Below are positions 14,656 to 63,344 of a stretch of DNA of 64,000 nucleotides, piece by piece. Each line of letters opens with the position of its first letter. Positions within the stretch are counted from its first letter, which is position 1. Made by a program: the position numbers and the translations under genes. Below the pieces are notes generated by a model. That model was not told the origin of the DNA. It made no database searches and was given only the letters and a program-made list of their open reading frames with translations. The stretch comes from Escherichia coli (GTDB lineage Bacteria; Pseudomonadota; Gammaproteobacteria; Enterobacterales; Enterobacteriaceae): the NCBI RefSeq assembly GCF_016903815.1, contig NZ_CP069973.1; one strand, 5' to 3'.

Positions 14656-15387
14656 ATGAATCAACCAATACACAATGATTACTGGTTATCCCGTTTTGAA
14701 AGTATTCTCAACAGTGCCCTGGTGCAACACCGTGCCGTCTCGTTAATCCGGGTGGATTTACGTTTCCCTGAGTATATGCCTGTCACCATCATGGATCCCG
14801 ATCCGGATTCAGCGGTGATTTCCCGTTTTTTCGCATCCCTGAAAGCCAAAATTCAGGCTTACCAGCGGAAAAAAAGATGGGCCAATCAGCGTGTGCATGC
14901 AACCAGCCTGCGTTATTTCTGGTGCCGGGAGTTCGGCAAGATGTATGGCAGGAAACATTATCACGTGATATTACTGCTCAACAAAGATACCTGGTGCTCG
15001 CTCGGGGATTTCAGCGAACCGTCTTCGCTGGCGACGATGATCCAGGAGGCATGGTGCAGCGCCCTGCATCTTGAGCCCTGGCAAGGCGATGGCCTGGTCC
15101 ATTTTTCCAGGTGGACGCCTTCCCGTAAACCGACATCGTCTGATGCTCGCCCTTCTTCCGATGACACGCCTTTGTCGGGTGGATGTTCTGATACCAGGAA
15201 GGCTTCAGACAAAAAGCCAGGTGAAGCCGCTGTGCTCTGGATCAAGCGTGGTGATGTGGAAGCGCTGCAGAAAGCCCGGAACAGAGCCAGTTATCTCGTG
15301 AAATATGAGACGAAGCAGCATGACGGTTCCGGGCAACGTAATTATGGTTGCAGTCGTGGGCCGGGGCGTCTACTGGATGGCAGGTGA
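14656..15387 (+). CDS. YagK/YfjJ-family protein (Inovirus Gp2-like)
   Basis: N-terminal region resembles YfjJ/YagK of cryptic prophages; from memory. Confidence 0.5.
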   Translation: MNQPIHNDYWLSRFESILNSALVQHRAVSLIRVDLRFPEYMPVTIMDPDPDSAVISRFFASLKAKIQAYQRKKRWANQRVHATSLRYFWCREFGKMYGRKHYHVILLLNKDTWCSLGDFSEPSSLATMIQEAWCSALHLEPWQGDGLVHFSRWTPSRKPTSSDARPSSDDTPLSGGCSDTRKASDKKPGEAAVLWIKRGDVEALQKARNRASYLVKYETKQHDGSGQRNYGCSRGPGRLLDGR

Positions 15388-18842: not shown

Positions 18843-20093
18843 ATGGACATCATGAGAAGTATAGTGGGAATGGCAGTATTGCTGATAATTGCATTTCTAC
18901 TATCAGTGAATAAAAAACGTATCAGTTTACGTACCACAGGAGCTGCACTGGTTCTTCAAATCGCGATTGGTGGGATCATGCTCTATTTCCCCCCGGGGAA
19001 ATGGCTGGTTGAACAGGCTGCACTGGGCGTACATAAAATTATGTCTTACAGTGATGCGGGCAGTGCCTTTATTTTTGGCTCTCTGGTAGGGGACAAAATG
19101 GACGTACTGTTCGATGGGGCGGGTTTTATCTTCGCCTTCCGTGTACTTCCTGCCATCATTTTTGTTACAGCGCTTATCAGTCTGCTGTACTACATCAGAG
19201 TGATGGGGGGGCTTATCCGTATTCTGGGGGGGATTTTTCAGAAAGCTCTGAACATAAGTAAAGTTGAGTCATTTGTGGCAGTAACGACAATTTTCCTGGG
19301 GCAAAACGAGATCCCGGCAATTGTAAAACCGTTTATTAATCGTCTGAATCGTAATGAATTATTTACTGTCATCTGCAGTGGGATGGCTTCGATTGCCGGT
19401 TCAATGATGATCGGCTATGCCGGGATGGGGGTTCCGATTGACTATTTGCTGGCGGCGTCGTTGATGGCGATCCCGGGGGGGATCCTTTTTGCCCGTATTC
19501 TGAGTCCGGCCACAGAAGAATCAAAAGTCACTTTTGAAAATCTTTCTTTCACTGATACTCCTCCCAAAAGTGTTATTGAAGCAGTGGCCAGCGGGGCGAT
19601 GACCGGGTTGAAAATCGCTGTCGGAGTTGCAACGGTAGTGATGACCTTTGTTGCTATTATTGCTCTGATTAACGGTATAATCGGTGGTATCGGAGGCTGG
19701 TTTGGTTATGGTAATATTACCCTTGAGGGCATTTTCGGCTGGATTTTGGCTCCCCTTGCGTGGATCATGGGCGTTGACTGGGCGGATGCTTCACTGGCAG
19801 GAAGTCTGATTGGTCAGAAGCTGGCAATTAACGAATTTGTTGCTTATCTCAATCTTTCACCCTATTTACAGCCAGGCAGTACGCTTGATGTGAAAACCAC
19901 CGCAATTATTTCTTTTGCACTGTGTGGTTTTGCCAACTTTGGCTCCATTGGTGTGGTGGTGGGTGCCTTTTCAGCCATATCACCTCAGCGTGCACCTGAA
20001 ATTGCACAACTGGGCATGCGTGCACTGGCGGCGGCCACCCTGTCAAACCTGATGAGTGCGACTATCGCTGGTTTTTTCATTGGGCTGGCATAA
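18843..20093 (+). CDS. psuT: Concentrative nucleoside transporter (NupC family, PsuT-like)
   Basis: 416-aa polytopic membrane protein with NupC-like sequence. Confidence 0.75.
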   Translation: MDIMRSIVGMAVLLIIAFLLSVNKKRISLRTTGAALVLQIAIGGIMLYFPPGKWLVEQAALGVHKIMSYSDAGSAFIFGSLVGDKMDVLFDGAGFIFAFRVLPAIIFVTALISLLYYIRVMGGLIRILGGIFQKALNISKVESFVAVTTIFLGQNEIPAIVKPFINRLNRNELFTVICSGMASIAGSMMIGYAGMGVPIDYLLAASLMAIPGGILFARILSPATEESKVTFENLSFTDTPPKSVIEAVASGAMTGLKIAVGVATVVMTFVAIIALINGIIGGIGGWFGYGNITLEGIFGWILAPLAWIMGVDWADASLAGSLIGQKLAINEFVAYLNLSPYLQPGSTLDVKTTAIISFALCGFANFGSIGVVVGAFSAISPQRAPEIAQLGMRALAAATLSNLMSATIAGFFIGLA

Positions 20094-20102
20094 AAAATAC
20101 AA

Positions 20103-20130
20103 TCCCGGGTGTTACCCCCGGGATGTTTTT
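20103..20130. terminator. Bidirectional rho-independent terminator between convergent psuT and the regulator-kinase gene
   Basis: TCCCGGG-tgttacc-CCCGGGA hairpin flanked by an A-run and a T-run. Confidence 0.6.
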
Positions 20131-21206
20131 AACAGATATTGCGCGTTATTAACGGAAAGTGTTGGGTTATTGATGCTGGTGCTGGCACGTGACAGTGCTG
20201 CACATGCCATCGCAAAGTGAGCACTTTCCTGGAAACTACTTCCTTCCAGAAAACTGTAAAGCAGACCTGCCATAAAGCCATCATCTGCACCAAAGCTGTC
20301 CACAACGGCATGAACGGGCGGTGTGAGCAGAAATTGTTCTCCCTCTCTTTGGCTACAGAAAACGGATTCATCTCCCATCCAGACAAAAATCTGTTGCACA
20401 CCCTGCTGATGTAGTGCGTTCACTGCGGTGAGTAGATCGGTCTCATTGTTGACAGGGGAACCCCATAATATCTCCAGTTCTTTTTGTGTGGGTTTCAGGG
20501 TATGGATATGCGGAAGCCAGTTTTTTACATTAACAGCCTTAAATTTCGACACTGTATCAATAAAAACGGGAATGCCGTCAGCGACCGTAAAGATCCATTC
20601 AAGGGCGGCAGGTGTCAGATTACAGTCAGCCAGCACCACGCCAGCGTGACGGATTAACATACGTGAGGCGTCCAGCAACTGCGGCGTCAGTTGTTGCAGA
20701 ATATGGGTATCATTAATCGCCATCACTGTTTCTGCCTGTAGGTCGGCGATGGAGACATAAGTTGAAGTATTTTGTCCGTTCAGTCGAATACAATTGGTGA
20801 CATTAACGCCGGCCAGGCGGGTCTGCTCCAGTAATGTTTCGCCATAAAAATCATTGCCTACAGCAGATATCAGATGCACATTGCGGCCCAGAAGGGCGAG
20901 ATTATGGGCGATGTTGCGTCCGACACCTCCGGCAGAGCAGTAAATACTGCCCGGACTGGAGGATTTCTGTGGATAATGGATATCCGCCACCCCACGGATA
21001 TCCATGTTAATCGCCCCAAGAACAACACAGTATTCCTGTTCTGTCAGGATGTAGCCTTTCCCTTTAATCGCACCTTTGCGCATCAGATCCATAATGTGTG
21101 CAGCAACACGCGACCGACTGATTTGTAAAATCTCAGCAATTTCATTCTGCTGGATCAGTGGGTTGTGACGCAGGATCCTGAGTATCTCTTTTTCTCTGTT
21201 GTCCAT
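20112..21206 (-). CDS. HTH-domain fused to PfkB-family kinase (YeiI-like)
   Basis: N-terminal winged-helix (ILRILRHNPLIQQNEIAEILQISRSRV) plus GGVGRNIAHNLALLG kinase motif. Confidence 0.75.
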   Translation of the reverse strand: MDNREKEILRILRHNPLIQQNEIAEILQISRSRVAAHIMDLMRKGAIKGKGYILTEQEYCVVLGAINMDIRGVADIHYPQKSSSPGSIYCSAGGVGRNIAHNLALLGRNVHLISAVGNDFYGETLLEQTRLAGVNVTNCIRLNGQNTSTYVSIADLQAETVMAINDTHILQQLTPQLLDASRMLIRHAGVVLADCNLTPAALEWIFTVADGIPVFIDTVSKFKAVNVKNWLPHIHTLKPTQKELEILWGSPVNNETDLLTAVNALHQQGVQQIFVWMGDESVFCSQREGEQFLLTPPVHAVVDSFGADDGFMAGLLYSFLEGSSFQESAHFAMACAALSRASTSINNPTLSVNNAQYLLKTSRG

Positions 21207-21643
21207 GATTATGCAACTGCCTGTTCGGTTTTTCGTCAGCGATCATCAAAGTAAATAGCTTCGTTTTTCCCGGTGAACGTGAAGCTAGGGGAGATTATAC
21301 TTCCAGATGTTCATTCAGGGCAGAAGAATAATACATCAGTTAATTTTCTGTTAGTACTTTGTAGTCGAATGTTTGGGGAGTGTGTCTGAATGACAGCCAG
21401 ATGGAATGACTTTTTGTAGCCAGGTCATGACTACGACTCATACGCTATTCTTAATTCTTATTTCTTTCCATTATACGCAAGTATTTTTAATTTAGGTTTA
21501 TTACTATAATTATATTCACTTTGTCTTTATTCACTCTGTTTTTACTTACTCTCTATCTTTACTCATTCCATTACTCTGACCCTCACCCGATTATACTTAC
21601 TCCCTTCCTTGTCTAATCTTCATTGCCACCATTATCATGGTAT

Positions 21644-21697
21644 CCACCTTCTCCACCTTCTCCACCTTCTCCACCTTCTCCACCTTCTCCACCTTCT
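21644..21697. repeat. Tandem repeat, 9-bp unit CCACCTTCT x 6
   Basis: Counted directly in sequence; lies in a 1.3-kb AT-rich region without a convincing ORF. Confidence 0.9.
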
Positions 21698-22533
21698 CCT
21701 TCATTCAATCATAACTACTGTAATTCATACGATACTCAGATAAGTTATTTTACTACGTTGTTGCTAATATCTACCTGTTATCAGTCTTCACTGAAACAGC
21801 AATTGATTTTAGTCATTATCCATAATGAACTGTATTGACTTAACGATGATTGTTGTTGACCTGAAGTGTTTTAACTATTCTGGTAAATATCAATACTTCT
21901 GTCATCACTGATTAACTGGATGTTTACTCTTTGATAAGGTATCCATGATTTCGTCATGTTTAACAGCGCAGGATAAACAATGAAATTAACAGAGTGAATT
22001 CCTGATTATATTTGTTCGTTTCTGATTATCTTGTATGTTAAACAAAATGAAAATTATCCATCCATGGTATATTTTATTCTGGTGCCGTGTACCCGTTAAC
22101 GCTCATGTTTTGAAGTGAGTTGTTTTTAACAGATTAAATGAGAGTGTATGATTTTATCAGGTTACAGATATGTGTTGGCCTTGTACACGTTTTTGCAGAC
22201 TCACTGAGAGCAAGTTTGTAGTTTATGATGTGATTGGTCGCAATATGTTTCTTAATCTCCAGGTAGTGGGGTTTTAGCTCGTATTTTACAGTATTTCGTG
22301 ATGTTTTATTGAGTCTGTATTTTCTTTACTCCTCGTTTATCTCATCTCTTTAGCTAATACCATCAGATAATCCATTTCTTTCTGCATAATGCTGCGTATC
22401 GTTAATAACCCGTCGTATCCATTCTGCTACAGCATGCCTGATAAATACCATCTGTAAGTTATTACCGTTATGAGCGAAAGCATTAATTCGTTCACAGAGC
22501 TTAAAACATCATTAACTTTCAGGAGTCATCAAC

Positions 22534-23100
22534 ATGCCTAAATCTTACACACCAAACTGGTTTTTTACCGCTTTACTTGACAATCACATCAATCAAATGA
22601 TGGCACGCTATTCCTGCCTGCGGGCCTTACGGATGGATTTCTTCTACAGGAAAGATACGCCCGATTTCTTACAACCTGATCATCGCTGGCTTGAATTGCA
22701 GTTGCGTATGCTGCTGGAGCAGGTGGAACAATTTGAAAATATCGTTGGTTTCTTCTGGGTGATTGAATGGACGGCTGATCATGGTTTTCATGCGCATGCG
22801 GTTTTGTGGATCGATCGTCAGAGGGTTAAAAAAATATATCCCTTTGCGGAGCGGATTACGGAATGCTGGCGGTCTATTACACATAACAGCGGTTCGGCAC
22901 ACCGCTGTACATATCAGCCGCATTATACATACAACATCAACATTCCTGTGCGCCACAACGATCCTGAAAGCATCGATAATATTCGCGGTGCCCTGCATTA
23001 TCTGGCAAAAGAAGAGCAAAAAGACGGGCTGTGTGCCTATGGCTGCAATGAAGTTCCTGAACGTCCTGCTGCAGGGCGTCCTCGTAACCCTCACTTCTGA
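22534..23100 (+). CDS. YagK/YfjJ-family protein (Inovirus Gp2-like)
   Basis: 188-aa ORF with family resemblance; from memory. Confidence 0.5.
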   Translation: MPKSYTPNWFFTALLDNHINQMMARYSCLRALRMDFFYRKDTPDFLQPDHRWLELQLRMLLEQVEQFENIVGFFWVIEWTADHGFHAHAVLWIDRQRVKKIYPFAERITECWRSITHNSGSAHRCTYQPHYTYNINIPVRHNDPESIDNIRGALHYLAKEEQKDGLCAYGCNEVPERPAAGRPRNPHF

Positions 23101-23327
23101 AGCTTAAATCCTGAGCTTCCTGTCCTGGAAACATTCCGTCGGTAAAACCTTACCACCTTGCTTAATGATGTGAACTGAAGTCAACGGAGATCATTCACTC
23201 TTAACCACATCCGGTGTTCTGTCCCTTGTCGGTGACCTGATCTTCCCGTTCTGCTTCGGTTCTTCACTTATTCCATCAACCCCATCCGCAAGCTATAACA
23301 CGTCAGCTCATTCACGGGCAGGACGCA

Positions 23328-23933
23328 TTGTGGGCTGCGCATAACGGAGCATATCTTATGAATGCTATCCCTTATTTCGACTATAGCCTAGCACCCTTCT
23401 GGCCGTCTTATCAGAACAAAATCATCGGTGTCCTTGAGCGTGCGCTGCGTGAGCAGTCCGGCTCCCGGATACGACGGATCCTGCTTCGTCTGCCATGTGA
23501 ATATGACCGTACCTTCAGCAGCAGAAAGATCTGGTTCGGTATGGACTTTATCGAAACCGTCAGTGCGCTGATGAATGCAACACCTGGACGAGATCTCTGC
23601 TGGCTCCTGACCCGTCATCCTGAAAAGCCGGAATACCACGTGGTGCTGTGTGTCAGACAGGAGTATTTCGACGGCCCTGAACTGGACCGGCTGATTCTGG
23701 ATGCCTGGAGCAACGTACTGGGCTTCGCGTCACCGGGTGAAGCAAAGCAGTATCAGAAGCAGATCACCCGGGATGTGGTGCTGGACAGTCGTTCACCGGA
23801 CTGTGAAAACATCCTCAAAGAGTTGATATGGGCGTTCAGTGATTTCGCCCGCGATCGTCGTGGTGTGTGCGATCCGGAAGCCCGTTGCCTCGCCGGTAAT
23901 CCCGGCTATCCCGGATCTGCAGGACCGTTCTGA
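23328..23933 (+). CDS. Hypothetical protein, possibly a second YagK/YfjJ-like paralog; start may be the Met at 23358
   Basis: ORF adjacent to the YagK-like gene and AlpA. Confidence 0.45.
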   Translation: MWAAHNGAYLMNAIPYFDYSLAPFWPSYQNKIIGVLERALREQSGSRIRRILLRLPCEYDRTFSSRKIWFGMDFIETVSALMNATPGRDLCWLLTRHPEKPEYHVVLCVRQEYFDGPELDRLILDAWSNVLGFASPGEAKQYQKQITRDVVLDSRSPDCENILKELIWAFSDFARDRRGVCDPEARCLAGNPGYPGSAGPF

Positions 23934-24001
23934 AAGCTCGGTTCAGCATCTTTCCCTGCATTCGCACAAACTTCATAAATCTCACAAAGGACATTCTGAC
24001 C

Positions 24002-24235
24002 ATGTTGACCACAACAAGCCACGACAGCGTGTTACTGCGTGCCGACGATCCCCTGATCGACATGAACTACATCACCAGTTTCACCGGTATGACCGATAAA
24101 TGGTTTTACAAGCTGATCAGTGAAGGTCATTTCCCTAAACCCATCAAACTGGGGCGCAGCAGCCGCTGGTACAAAAGTGAAGTGGAGCAGTGGATGCAGC
24201 AGCGAATTGAGGAATCACGAGGAGCAGCAGCATGA
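24002..24235 (+). CDS. alpA: AlpA-family phage regulatory protein (MerR-like HTH)
   Basis: MNYITSFTGMTDKWFYKLISEGHFPKPIKLGRSSRWYKSEVEQW matches the AlpA pattern. Confidence 0.75.
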   Translation: MLTTTSHDSVLLRADDPLIDMNYITSFTGMTDKWFYKLISEGHFPKPIKLGRSSRWYKSEVEQWMQQRIEESRGAAA

Positions 24236-24357
24236 AACGTGTTGCAATGCCGGCGCTGGTATTGCGGAAATCAGCCCTGTCCCCGATGCTGGCGACACTC
24301 CCGCTCATCTTTCTGCTGACTCCTCTGGTCTGCCAACTGTTTGTCATCATTTCCTGA
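24232..24357 (+). CDS. Putative 41-aa hydrophobic peptide translationally coupled to alpA (ATGA overlap)
   Basis: ATG at 24232 overlaps the alpA stop; AGGAG-like motif upstream; below the ORF-track size cutoff. Confidence 0.3.
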   Translation: MKRVAMPALVLRKSALSPMLATLPLIFLLTPLVCQLFVIIS

Positions 24358-24526
24358 CTGATTCGTCATTCCCTTCGTCCCGCCAGTCACTGGTGTTTGT
24401 ATCGTACCGTCCGGTGTTGATGTGCGTTTTCCGTGTGTCTGCACCGGCTTAACAAAATTCAACAGGGTTTGAAAAGGAACATTTCGTGCAAATAACCGAA
24501 GCCTTAATTTCAGAGCCGGGAGACAT

Positions 24527-24891
24527 CCGGCGTTTTGTTCAGCAGGCGCTGGAGTTCTTTAATCTGCTTCATGGCAGCAGCAAGTTCAGAGGCAGGAACG
24601 ACCTGTTCTCCTGCGGCCACAGCAGTAAGACTTCCCTCCTGGTATTGCTTGCGCCAGAGAAATAACTGGCTGGCTGCCACACCGTGTTGCCGGGCAACAA
24701 GGGAGACCGTCATTCCCGGTTCAAAGCTCTGCTGAACAATAGCGATCTTTTCCTGTGTAGTACGCCGTCTGCGTTTCTCCGGTCCTAAGACATCAATCAT
24801 CTGTTCTCCAATGACTAGTCTAAAAACTAGTATTAAGACTATCACTTATTTAAGTGATATTGGTTGTCTGGAGATTCTGGGGGCTAGTCTA
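24527..24891 (-). mobile_element. IS2 fragment (left end with truncated insC)
   Basis: Near-identical to the IS2 left end seen intact at 53024; InsC translation diverges after LQRLL; terminal GGGGGCTAGTCTA. Confidence 0.85.
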
Positions 24892-24939
24892 GTTTTAAAA
24901 CGCCCCCTGCCGTATCAGAACTGGGGAATGCTACAGGGT

Positions 24940-26048
24940 TTGACCTGTTCCTCGAGGATCGTAGCGGAGCTGGCCATGAAAAAATGATCCAGGCCCGAAA
25001 TCAGCTTCTTGCTGAAGCGGCGAAAAGTCCAGCGTTAAACATGGTTCGTCCTAACGGCATGAACGATGAGCCTCAGTTCCAGATTCTGATTGATGACGAG
25101 AAAGTTCAGGCGCTTAAACTGAGCATGAGCGACGTCGACAACATAATGTCAGCAGCCTGGGGTTCGATGTATGTAAATGATTTTAACGATCGTGGACGGG
25201 TGAAAAAAGTCTATATTTAGGGCGAACCCGGCTCACGTATATCACCGCAGGATTTTGATAAATGGTATGTCCGTAACAGTGATGGCGACATGGTTTCCTT
25301 TGCCTCTTTTGCAACAGGCAAATGGATTTATGGCTCACCAAAACTGGAGCAATATAATGGTATCTCTGCTGTCGAAATCCTGGGGGAACCGGCACCAGGA
25401 TACAGTTCCGGGGATGCAATGAAAGCAATTGAGGATATTGCGGCAAGACTTCCCGAAGGTTTCCATATTTCCTGGACAGGTTTGTCTTTTGAGGAACGAC
25501 TTTCAGGTTCTCAGGCTCCTGCACTATATGCACTTTCACTGTTGATCGTCTTTCTGTGTCTGGCTGCACTGTATGAAAGCTGGAGCATTCCTTTCTCGGT
25601 CATGCTGGTTGTTCCGCTTGGTGTCCTGAGGGCTGTCTGTGCTACTTTGTTGCGCGGCCTTGGTAACGATGTCTTTTTCCAGGTCGGTTTATTAACAACA
25701 ATAGGGCTGTCTGCGAAAAATGCCATACTTATCGTGGAGTTTGCTCGTGAATTGCATGAGAAAGAAGGACTAAGCATTAAAGAGGCTGCTGTTGAAGCGG
25801 CGAGAGTGAGGTTAAGACCGATAATTATGACTTCGCTGGCATTTGTAATGGGGGTTATCCCACTGGCTGTCTCGACTGGAGCAAGTTCCGGAAGTAAACA
25901 TGCCATCGGTACTGGTGTGGTTGGAGGGATGATCACTGCTACGATACTGGCAATCTTTTATATTCCTCTCTTCTATATGTTAATTGCCGGGTTCTTCAGC
26001 CGCAGAAATAAGAAATCATCGGATAAGACTGAAGCTGAGCAATCATAA
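24940..26048 (+). pseudogene. RND efflux transporter (AcrB/MdtF family), 3' portion only, with in-frame TAG at 25218..25220
   Basis: Translation aligns to the C-terminal third of AcrB-like pumps in one frame across the stop; 5' end removed at the IS2 fragment. Confidence 0.8.
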
Positions 26049-31965: not shown

Positions 31966-33769
31966 GAGTAGGAGGCGGGATCACTCCCGCCGTCCTCTCA
32001 CACCACCGTACGTGCGGTTCCGCATACGGCGGTTCATGTTAACTCTGGAACTGCCTCTACTGTTCCAGCAGTGATATCAGACCCTGCCTCCTGAACCATG
32101 CATTCTTTATCGCCTGATTCATATGGCTTGACCCTGAGTTCCACCATGGCCCGTGGTTGTTGTACGCAGAGATCATTGCCCTGTCCTTACTCAGTCCTGC
32201 TCTTTGCAGATTCTTTGCCCGGGTTCGCGGTCTCTTCCACTGCCGCTACAACAAGCAACGCAGTTTCCGTTTGATCCAGCCATCCAGCTCCTCCAGCACT
32301 CCTCTGACTTCCGTCAGCCTGAAGTAGCTTATCCATCCACACAGCACTGGTGTCAGAGCATTGATTGTCGCTTTCACTGATTTGCTCCGGTTTCCCGTCG
32401 TCAGACTGTGGACTTTCTCCTTCAGCCTGTTCACGCTCGTCAGGGCTATCTTCAGCTTCGCCTGTTTGTGCCATGTCACACTGTACCCGAGGAACTTCCG
32501 ATCCCACGGGCGCGCCACCGCGCTCTTCTTCTCATTCACCTTCAGTTTGTTCTCCACGAACGCCCTGATGTTCTTCAGCAGATGGTCGCCCGCTTTCCGG
32601 CTGCTTACGTAGATGTTGCAGTCGTCTGCGTAGCGGCAGAAGCTGTGTCCACGACGCTCTAGTTCTTTATCCAGTTCATCCAGCAGGATGTTCGACAGTA
32701 ACGGCGACAGTGGGCCGCCCTGCAGCATGCCCGCCTGCCGTTTCTCCCTTTGCCCGTCTTTAACCATTTCCACTTTCAGGTAGCGGCGTATCAGTCACAG
32801 CACCCGCCTGTCCTTTATCGTTCTGGCCAGACGCGTCATCAGGAGTCTGTGATCCACCCGGTCGAAGAACTTCTCCAGATCCATATCCACCACCCACCGT
32901 TTGCCACCCCGTATGTAACGCTGTGCCTGTTGCACCGCCTGCTGGATAAGCCTGTCCACCACCGTCGGGATGCCTGAGGTTCTCACGCCGCCATCCGGCT
33001 TCGGGATATCCATCCGGCGTATTGCCCGCGGCTGGTAGTTTCCGTCAATCAATGCCTGCCTGACGCTGCGCCAGTTCTTCTTCAGCCACGGTTTCAACTC
33101 CGCCACGCTGAGGTTATCCACCCCCGCCGTGCCTTTGTTTTCCAGCACGCGCTGATAAGCCAGCATCAGGTTTTCTCTCGTTATCACCGCTTCCATCGTC
33201 AGCGGCACTTCCGCTTTCGTTTGCCCACCCGCCGCCGTGCTGATTTCAGCGCCATCATGCAGCCCTGACGGATACTGTCCGTCTCCTCTGCCGCTGGTCG
33301 CAGTTGCCTGCGCTTGTGCTTCATTAATCATCATCGGGTTCGGATGTCCTAATCACAGTTAATCATGTTCGGCCCTTCATGCTGCCGGTTTTGCAGCACT
33401 ACTACGGCGTCGGCTGACTTCTGCCGCCCCATCCCGGCGCCTCACGGCGCCGGTAGCACACTGGCAGGGCGACAGATCTCCCGGGGTAATTCACGTGACT
33501 TTCCTGCTTATGCCTGTCGGCTTTACGTCACAGCGTTCCGTGTGAGTATCGGGCTTTGGTGATTTGTGCCACCTTACCCTGCTGCGCCGCCTTAACCGCT
33601 TCCTGTTCGTCAGGCCAGCATTTTGCATCCAGCTTCCTTCAGATTTCACCTCGCGATGAACACCCTTGCCTTCCGCTAACACTTCCCCTCACCGGGTGTG
33701 TGGAGGACTTTCACCTCTTAGTCGTTCTTCTGCCACCACAGTTGAAGAACAGCGCCAGTCACGGCGCAC
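31966..33769 (-). mobile_element. Degenerate group II intron (class C-like) inserted after a terminator hairpin
   Basis: 5' end GTGCGCC immediately after hairpin 33771..33810; domain V-like CCGTATGCGGAACCGCACGTACGG near 32000; disrupted RT ORF inside. Confidence 0.65.
32246..33334 (-). pseudogene. Group II intron reverse transcriptase, disrupted (in-frame stop, internal deletion, C-terminal truncation)
   Basis: Two abutting ORFs (179 and 175 aa) with RT motifs FCRYADDCNIY and GGPLSPLLSNILLDELD. Confidence 0.8.
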
Positions 33770-55084: not shown

Positions 55085-55275
55085 GCTTTTAACCGGCATA
55101 TCCTGGCAGAAGAACAGTTGTGTCACTATGGTGAAGTCCGCAACCAGAATGGAAGCGAGCAGCAGCAAAAACAAATGAAAGATGCATTTGTTAAGCTGAT
55201 TCACGTTTACTGTTTTATATAAAGCCTTTAGGATGTGGGGGAAGGGGAGTGTTGCAATTTATTCGGTGAGATAGT

Positions 55276-55983
55276 TTGTTTGTGGAGTGTTTAAGCGCTT
55301 TTGGATGTTCGTCTGTTGTTTCGAATAGTATGGTGAATATGAATGGTAAATATAATGTCAGGAGTGAATTGTTAGCTCGTTGTATCGGAACTGGTAGATT
55401 GAAAGGAGATGTGAGAAGTGATTTTATTGGGTTTAATGGTAGTAAACAGGTAGGTTATGTTTTATTAACTTTGTTCTTAACGAAAGTAATAAATTCTGAT
55501 TTGCTCTCTCATTATCGTATATTTAATCGTTTTTTGCATTATGAGAGAAAAGTTATGGACATATATAATTCTTTGAGTGATATAGAAGTTGATTGTATTT
55601 GCCAGGAAGTGATGGCTATATATGAACATACTCAGCGATGCTGCAACGAAAAGAAAATCACAACTATCCAGTTAGGCAGGAAACTTAATGGCAGGTATGC
55701 AGATACGATTGCTGAGTTAAAAGAAACAGCAGAGATAAGAGGGGAGGATGTGATTTCTTTTGAGATGGATATATTGAATTCTTTTAATGATGCGGATGAA
55801 TATCACGGACGTGTTAAACTGGAGTTGGATATACCTGCTTCAGATATATTATATTGCCATGATTTTATTGATTCAAAACATGTAAACTCCTGGTTGGTTG
55901 AACCACATGAGTGGGTGGTTATAAATCGTTCTCTCAATGGGATTGTTACAGTGCCAGTATCATCAATAAAGATTCTTTATTGA
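55276..55983 (+). CDS. Hypothetical protein, AT-rich gene (start uncertain)
   Basis: ORF only. Confidence 0.45.
   Translation: MFVECLSAFGCSSVVSNSMVNMNGKYNVRSELLARCIGTGRLKGDVRSDFIGFNGSKQVGYVLLTLFLTKVINSDLLSHYRIFNRFLHYERKVMDIYNSLSDIEVDCICQEVMAIYEHTQRCCNEKKITTIQLGRKLNGRYADTIAELKETAEIRGEDVISFEMDILNSFNDADEYHGRVKLELDIPASDILYCHDFIDSKHVNSWLVEPHEWVVINRSLNGIVTVPVSSIKILY

Positions 55984-60604: not shown

Positions 60605-63344
<2,740 letters not shown>

Follow-up and report, generated by a model that had tools for sequence, protein, structure and literature searches.

A perfect 9-bp tandem array in the non-coding spacer of an Escherichia coli genomic island is a variable-number tandem repeat

Short direct repeats that lie upstream of genes or beside origins are known from several settings. 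Repeat-controlled promoters are found before Haemophilus influenzae hmw1A/hmw2A, with 7-bp repeats, and before Neisseria nadA, with a TAAA tract. Iterons and other Rep-binding repeats are situated beside nick sites, e.g. the bind locus of pMV158, the iterons of geminiviruses, the Rep-binding element (RBE) of adeno-associated virus (AAV) with its GCTC repeats, and the ACCA repeats of minute virus of mice (MVM). Variable-number tandem repeats (VNTRs) are used in multiple-locus VNTR analysis (MLVA) for typing E. coli. Reported here is a 9-bp tandem array in a 64-kb stretch of E. coli DNA (contig NZ_CP069973.1), which is termed the window and is numbered from its first nucleotide. The array is found in a gap without genes on a genomic island, upstream of a YagK/YfjJ-family gene. 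The locus belongs to the VNTR class: it consists of head-to-tail copies of one unit, and the copy number differs between genomes while the flanks are conserved.

Exact matching shows six copies of CCACCTTCT starting at positions 21644, 21653, 21662, 21671, 21680 and 21689. Tandem Repeats Finder (TRF) delimits the array at 21643-21699 with a period of 9, 6.3 copies, 100% matches and a score of 114, which makes it the top tandem repeat of the window (the runner-up scores 53). The six perfect units at 21644-21697 proposed from the sequence alone are thus confirmed by both methods. A chance origin of its 45 consecutive matching bases in 64 kb would be impossible. Elsewhere in the window there are 13 matches to CCACCTTCT with at most one mismatch where about 12 are expected, i.e. 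no dispersal beyond chance. The gap around the array, 21207-22533, is 1,327 bp long with a G+C content of 35.6%, compared with 48.0% for the window. Its longest open reading frame (ORF) has 71 amino acids (aa) and it contains no credible gene, in agreement with the AT-rich, gene-free region of about 1.3 kb described in the sequence-only reading. The left 280 bp of this region, however, are part of the cargo block of the divergent sugar kinase gene and not of the YagK module.

The gap is matched over at least 80% of its length in 376 of 5,426 complete E. coli genomes (about 370 carriers, or about 7%). The match lengths in carriers rise in 9-bp steps: 1300, 1309, 1318, 1327, 1336, 1345, 1363 and 1372. 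Arrays read in 12 sequences are all perfect and have 3, 3, 3, 4, 5, 6, 6, 6, 7, 8, 10 and 11 units. In an even-step sample of 25 of the roughly 370 carriers, three units are found in 16, four in two, five in two, six in one, seven in one, eight in two and ten in one. Since 16 of the 25 have three units, the six-unit allele of the window is a minority allele. In metagenomes, five contigs that share these flanks have 6, 7, 6, 3 and 3 units. A repeat count across related genomes had been proposed as a check, with an identical number everywhere as the outcome that would speak against a variable element; the counts of 3 to 11 read in sequence, and the sampled allele frequencies, show that the number does vary.

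In strains whose 3.1-kb flanks do not differ from the window by any single nucleotide polymorphism (SNP), arrays of 6, 8, 10 or 11 units are found. On a second haplotype, which differs by 3 SNPs over the 3.1-kb flanks, the arrays have 3, 4, 5, 6 or 7. The identical flanks around 6 to 11 units mean that the array changes much faster than point mutation accumulates, and the copy number shows homoplasy. The array is not wildly unstable, as epidemiologically related isolates agree in copy number. Each of four related sets displays a single number: five strains at 852894-854221, three WCHEC strains, KN12-1/KN13-4, and E118/E597/E686.

The origin of the array is apparent from related modules, for which the following features of the gap and its surroundings are needed.

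20112-21206, minus strand: YeiI-type sugar kinase gene (NCBIfam PRK09954, 732 bits).
21207-21486, minus strand: cargo-side sequence flanking the divergent sugar kinase gene on its 5' side; common only to islands with the same pseudouridine-type cargo (L003 is identical, L004 and L005 are unrelated).
21487-21512, plus strand: conserved AT-rich box TTAATTTAGGTTTATTACTATAATTA, at which all E. coli versions of the module end abruptly on the left; also found in other genera.
21513-21642, plus strand: G-depleted pyrimidine-rich zone (39 C and 8 G in 130 nt) with degenerate 15-bp repeats at 21513-21565; its length is hypervariable among sister versions.
21643-21699, no strand assigned: the perfect 9-bp tandem array, TCCACCTTC x 6.3 (register CCACCTTCT x 6 at 21644-21697), without G on the plus strand.
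21597-21704, minus strand: ORF of 35 aa (MKEKVEKVEKV...) with an ATG start, made by the stop-free repeat; judged spurious and absent from sister versions.
21700-22199, plus strand: AT-rich non-coding stretch, 79-86% conserved among sister versions, with insertions and deletions that are not multiples of three.
22200-22533, plus strand: proximal non-coding stretch with an AGGAG Shine-Dalgarno sequence at 22520-22524; the last ~235 nt are 96% conserved among sister versions.
22534-23100, plus strand: YagK/YfjJ-family gene, 188 aa, with HxH at H86/H88 and YxxK at Y156/K159 according to alignment and a predicted model.
23358-23933, plus strand: hypothetical protein of the same conserved module, 191 aa, no family match.
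24002-24235, plus strand: AlpA-family helix-turn-helix protein of the same module, 77 aa.

In more than 1,000 other genomes the match is confined to the right part of the gap, with 79-90% identity. Eight such sister versions were retrieved and aligned, which gives nine versions including that of the window. The module from the AT box to the gene is common to all of them. The sequence to the left of the box follows the cargo, which may be the pseudouridine cluster, dsdCXA, insertion sequence (IS) remnants or a YfjI-family gene. At the site of the array the sister versions read ...ATATCCACTTCCT..., with a single diverged unit (CCACTTCCT). Thus the array is a lineage-specific amplification. In the O157:H7 version nearly all of the repeat zone is missing and the downstream gene is intact. 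DNA matching the gap is found in E. coli chromosomes and in a few E. coli plasmids (only 12 plasmid records, all unannotated at the site), and was not found in the phage collection. No coding sequence (CDS) is annotated under any homologous match, and the possibility that the non-coding stretch is a pseudogene was rejected on this ground.

The zone that contains the array site shows a general tendency to tandem duplication and tolerates changes in length. This follows from the variation in its length (the distance from the box to the motif AATCATAAC is 59 to 196 nt among versions), from the degenerate 11-, 15-, 18- or 23-bp repeats that each sister version has of its own, and from an independent duplication in strain GF43 (L150, 345-453), where a 50-bp sequence is repeated in tandem (2.2 copies) directly after the AT box of a sister version.

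The array is therefore best explained, with a probability of roughly 0.6, as a slippage VNTR that affects the phenotype little, if at all, and lies in a length-tolerant non-coding spacer. A single CCAC(T)TCCT-like unit, such as the sister modules have, would have been amplified in this lineage, and replication slippage between perfect 9-bp units would now both add and remove copies. Loops of 9 nt escape MutS-dependent mismatch repair, and for this reason the array would be unstable even in a repair-proficient species. The spacer, which lies between the AT box and the conserved non-coding stretch, appears to tolerate anything from complete deletion to a length of 250 nt, and this dispensability suggests that copy number is near-neutral. 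At most, added units may lengthen a tract whose relevant property would be its strand composition and not its sequence.

The composition of the zone nevertheless weighs against a spacer without any function. G makes up only 3-6% of the plus strand in all nine E. coli versions although the sequence itself turns over, and relatives from other genera retain a weaker bias of C over G (about 35% C, 14% G). Positions 21516-21715, with 75 C and 8 G in 200 nt, form the most extreme C-over-G stretch of the 64 kb on both strands. Because G-depletion is kept in all versions despite sequence change, the zone as a whole seems to be under strand-specific constraint, and the G-free units could add to whatever purpose the constraint serves. 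The second strongest C-over-G skew of the window is situated on the minus strand at ~55232-55431, with (C-G)/200 = 0.275, in the intergenic region that separates a hypothetical gene from a VasL-domain remnant.

When species-representative genomes were scanned, YagK-like genes with 49-53% identity came up in Citrobacter, Enterobacter, Salmonella enterica subsp. diarizonae and Mixta, which are the relatives from other genera. Most of them carry a near-identical AT box only ~150 bp before the gene, the Salmonella copy being more diverged, so that the E. coli type has roughly 850 bp extra between box and gene. In these genera the box is enclosed by a 7-bp inverted repeat with the arms GGGAGTG/CACTCCC (DNA fold z = -3.4), and after it comes a C-rich, G-poor stretch whose poly-C run varies in length; in the window the inverted repeat around the box is degenerate (z = -0.3). 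A conserved 197-aa ORF without a Pfam match precedes the box in the other-genus relatives (L007-L012, ~210-810 bp upstream of the Rep-like gene), and it has no counterpart in the window. The box is 100% identical in many genomes despite diverged neighbouring sequence. It is absent from the viral contig collection. The box is a candidate nick site, origin or promoter.

The constrained composition could have a regulatory basis. In the main rival explanation, which we consider unlikely, the array would act as an expression rheostat. Rightward transcription from the AT box region or from a promoter-like site at 21609-21638 would place the repeat RNA in a long leader, e.g. as a Rho-loading (rut-like) tract, and copy number would tune the operon of the Rep-like and AlpA-family genes. 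The record skew of the tract is what such a leader would display, and the array strand has no predicted structure. The skew is present in all versions, being weaker in the other genera where the box sits at a promoter-like distance of ~150 bp before the gene. The promoter-like match itself, TTGTCT-18-TATCAT, ends 5 bp before the array, and the module includes an AlpA-family gene whose product could, by analogy, act as an antiterminator, as Pseudomonas AlpA has been shown to do (PMC7969949, PMC9371919). The scan that found the promoter-like match, however, gave 4 matches where 6.0 are expected from shuffled sequence. The site is not conserved in the sister versions L006, L014 and L018. Sister modules with a near-identical gene work with a single unit, and in O157:H7 the entire zone is missing. 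Related isolates agree in copy number, unlike classical contingency loci, and the gene itself is often a pseudogene, with frameshifts in strain 405 and L018 and ISEcp1 in CMZE123. On the same evidence the earlier suggestion of a promoter or leader role for the array, upstream of the YagK-like gene, stays unproven: the array ends 835 bp before the start codon, and the only promoter-like match beside it is no better than those of shuffled sequence.

The tandem repeats may instead be read as protein-binding sites. The HUH Rep-like protein would then nick or initiate at the AT box and bind double-stranded DNA at the 9-bp units, whose core is CCACC. The neighbouring gene does encode a protein with HUH Rep motifs and a modelled HUH Rep fold, an inverted repeat places the box in a loop in the other genera, and no version is without some kind of tandem direct repeat after the box. 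Yet sister modules that encode a 97-98% identical protein carry a single diverged unit and other repeats, the O157:H7 version dispenses with the zone, and the inverted repeat is degenerate in the window. The array is also 130 bp away from the box and the 9-mer is not found elsewhere in the island. Binding of the Rep-like protein to the units is very improbable on this evidence. A broader proposal takes the G-depleted repeat zone, the array included, as a working cis-element of the island's HUH Rep/AlpA module; the zone would either offer repeats for Rep to bind next to a nick site at the AT box, or load Rho on a tract of tunable length in the operon leader. Copy number would then set Rep-like/AlpA expression and hence island replication or excision; we hold this to be rather improbable. 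A slippage VNTR in a tolerant spacer remains the preferred explanation.

The array does not appear to be translated. The sequence-only reading had doubted coding, and this doubt is well founded, although it is mistaken in taking a TTG-started Pro/Ser ORF as the only one over the array. There are four such ORFs, one of which (21597-21704, minus strand) starts with ATG. None yields a family match of note and they are absent from sister versions. The 9-bp unit preserves the reading frame, and a variable small protein could be envisaged: the minus-strand frame that opens with the ATG at 21704 would give (EKV)n, and a plus-strand frame opening with TTG would give (PPS)n. The National Center for Biotechnology Information (NCBI) pipeline indeed calls the minus-strand ORF a hypothetical protein in strains with at least 8 units (WP_258228948.1, WP_157908324.1, WP_181876825.1). 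This annotation appears only when at least 8 units lengthen the stop-free frame past the calling threshold. Outside this locus the same 27-mer lies mostly in long open frames: a metagenome scan with three units found at least 120 loci, and among the matches listed 115 are unrelated arrays in long open frames and 5 are the E. coli locus. In the window, the ATG at 21704 has no Shine-Dalgarno sequence, and the 35-aa frame exists only through the stop-free repeat, is missing in all sister versions and has no significant family match. The combination of a start signal with an ORF conserved in relatives, as expected of a coding repeat, is not found here, and translation of the array is accordingly the most improbable of these explanations, close to negligible.

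The DNA between the array and the gene is more conserved than the array zone. The last 235 nt beside the gene are its best conserved part (96%), and for this reason they are a likelier site, judged on sequence, for the promoter and 5' untranslated region (UTR) of the gene than the array. A 12-bp deletion (TTTTAGATCTGA) is found after 22467, ~65 bp before the start codon, in the window lineage only; the 12 bp are present in 8 of 8 sister versions. A 28-aa frame at 21825-21911 on the plus strand (MNCIDLTMIVVDLKCFNYSGKYQYFCHH) is the only ORF that stays open throughout the nine versions, yet no Shine-Dalgarno sequence precedes it and it shows many non-synonymous differences. A 33-aa ORF on the minus strand at 22350-22451 (MVFIRHAVAEWIRRVINDTQ...), in the best-conserved proximal stretch, is intact in 6 of 9 versions and broken or deleted in 3 of 9. 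For the 830-nt non-coding stretch, RNAalifold run with seven versions gives a covariation term of 0.03, so that a conserved RNA structure is unsupported. An Rfam scan of 20000-25000 at E <= 1 shows no family; one sub-threshold match to a eukaryotic snoRNA was taken as chance. E. coli K-12 was rejected as a comparator. Its yfjI-yfjJ gap is 152 bp without homology and K-12 data sets are thus not transferable.

The 188-aa product of the YagK/YfjJ-family gene scores just below the threshold for Pfam REP_ORF2-G2P and YagK_YfjJ_C. Its HxH (H86, H88) and YxxK (Y156, K159) motifs are invariant in an alignment that includes K-12 YfjJ and a second family member of the island. An AlphaFold model has a mean predicted local distance difference test (pLDDT) score of 85.5, and a PDB sequence search with the protein gave no match. 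On its modelled fold and motifs the protein is an HUH Rep-like nuclease. The Rep-like gene is not known to have been characterised before. According to a preprint, the likely core genes of an intY/alpA island class in Pseudomonas include Gp2-like proteins (10.1101/2024.08.29.610337). The gene is frameshifted in strain 405 (L024, 5346-5911) and in L018, and it is cut by ISEcp1-blaCTX-M-15 in E. coli CMZE123 (L025, 5310-8282); since it is frameshifted or interrupted in some strains it is dispensable. The CMZE123 insertion also shows that the site can acquire a resistance gene. The second family member of the island, at 14656-15387 on the plus strand, is more typical (243 aa, Pfam YagK_YfjJ_C 123.7 bits). 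It has a long non-coding upstream gap as well, of ~670 bp, and the AT box is absent there.

The window region is identical to E. coli chromosomes such as NZ_CP103521.1. One end of the island adjoins cadC/cadB, and no tRNA gene is found in the 64-kb window. The cargo block to the left of the gap consists of a pseudouridine kinase, a pseudouridine glycosidase, a NupC-type transporter and the divergent YeiI-type sugar kinase. To the right is the conserved module with the YagK/YfjJ-family gene, the 191-aa hypothetical gene and the AlpA-family gene. Two short genes with reverse-transcriptase domains (~32246-33334) are situated inside the glycyl-radical propanediol microcompartment (grp) locus between grpO and grpP, and a group II intron ltrA gene is found near the right end of the window (~61276-62784).

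The conserved non-coding module upstream of the HUH Rep-like gene is a more interesting lead than the array itself. More than 1,500 complete E. coli genomes carry it, with ~1 kb of conserved non-coding DNA leading to the Rep-like gene. If the module replicates or mobilises islands, the box and the repeat zone would be the obvious cis-elements.

Among the known systems, rut tracts in leaders share with this zone a long C-rich, G-poor tract predicted to be unstructured; the 200 nt with 75 C and 8 G would exceed the length of at least ~80 nt expected of such a tract. HUH Rep iterons share direct repeats near a candidate nick box, upstream of an HUH Rep-like gene that is adjacent here as well. They differ in that the unit of this array is single-copy or absent beside a near-identical Rep-like protein, and so is not kept in the homologous origins, and that no hairpin surrounds the box of the window. 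With contingency-locus promoters the locus shares an intergenic array upstream of a gene and copy-number polymorphism. The array, however, is 835 bp from the start codon with no supported promoter, and homologous modules lack it. Its copy number is moreover constant among close isolates, where contingency loci vary in close relatives.

The closest likeness is to the bacterial VNTR/MLVA loci used in E. coli typing. The array 18-mer is found in no paper in a literature search, and the 9-mer only in unrelated primer matches; on this search, typing-scheme tables aside, the array appears to be no described typing locus. As in typing loci, a perfect short unit is repeated head to tail, the copy number differs with identical flanks, it is stable in outbreak-scale sets, and slippage is presumed. 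The difference is that this array is carried on an accessory island in only ~7% of complete genomes. For those E. coli, which include extraintestinal clinical isolates from blood and urine, it may serve as a fast sub-typing marker.
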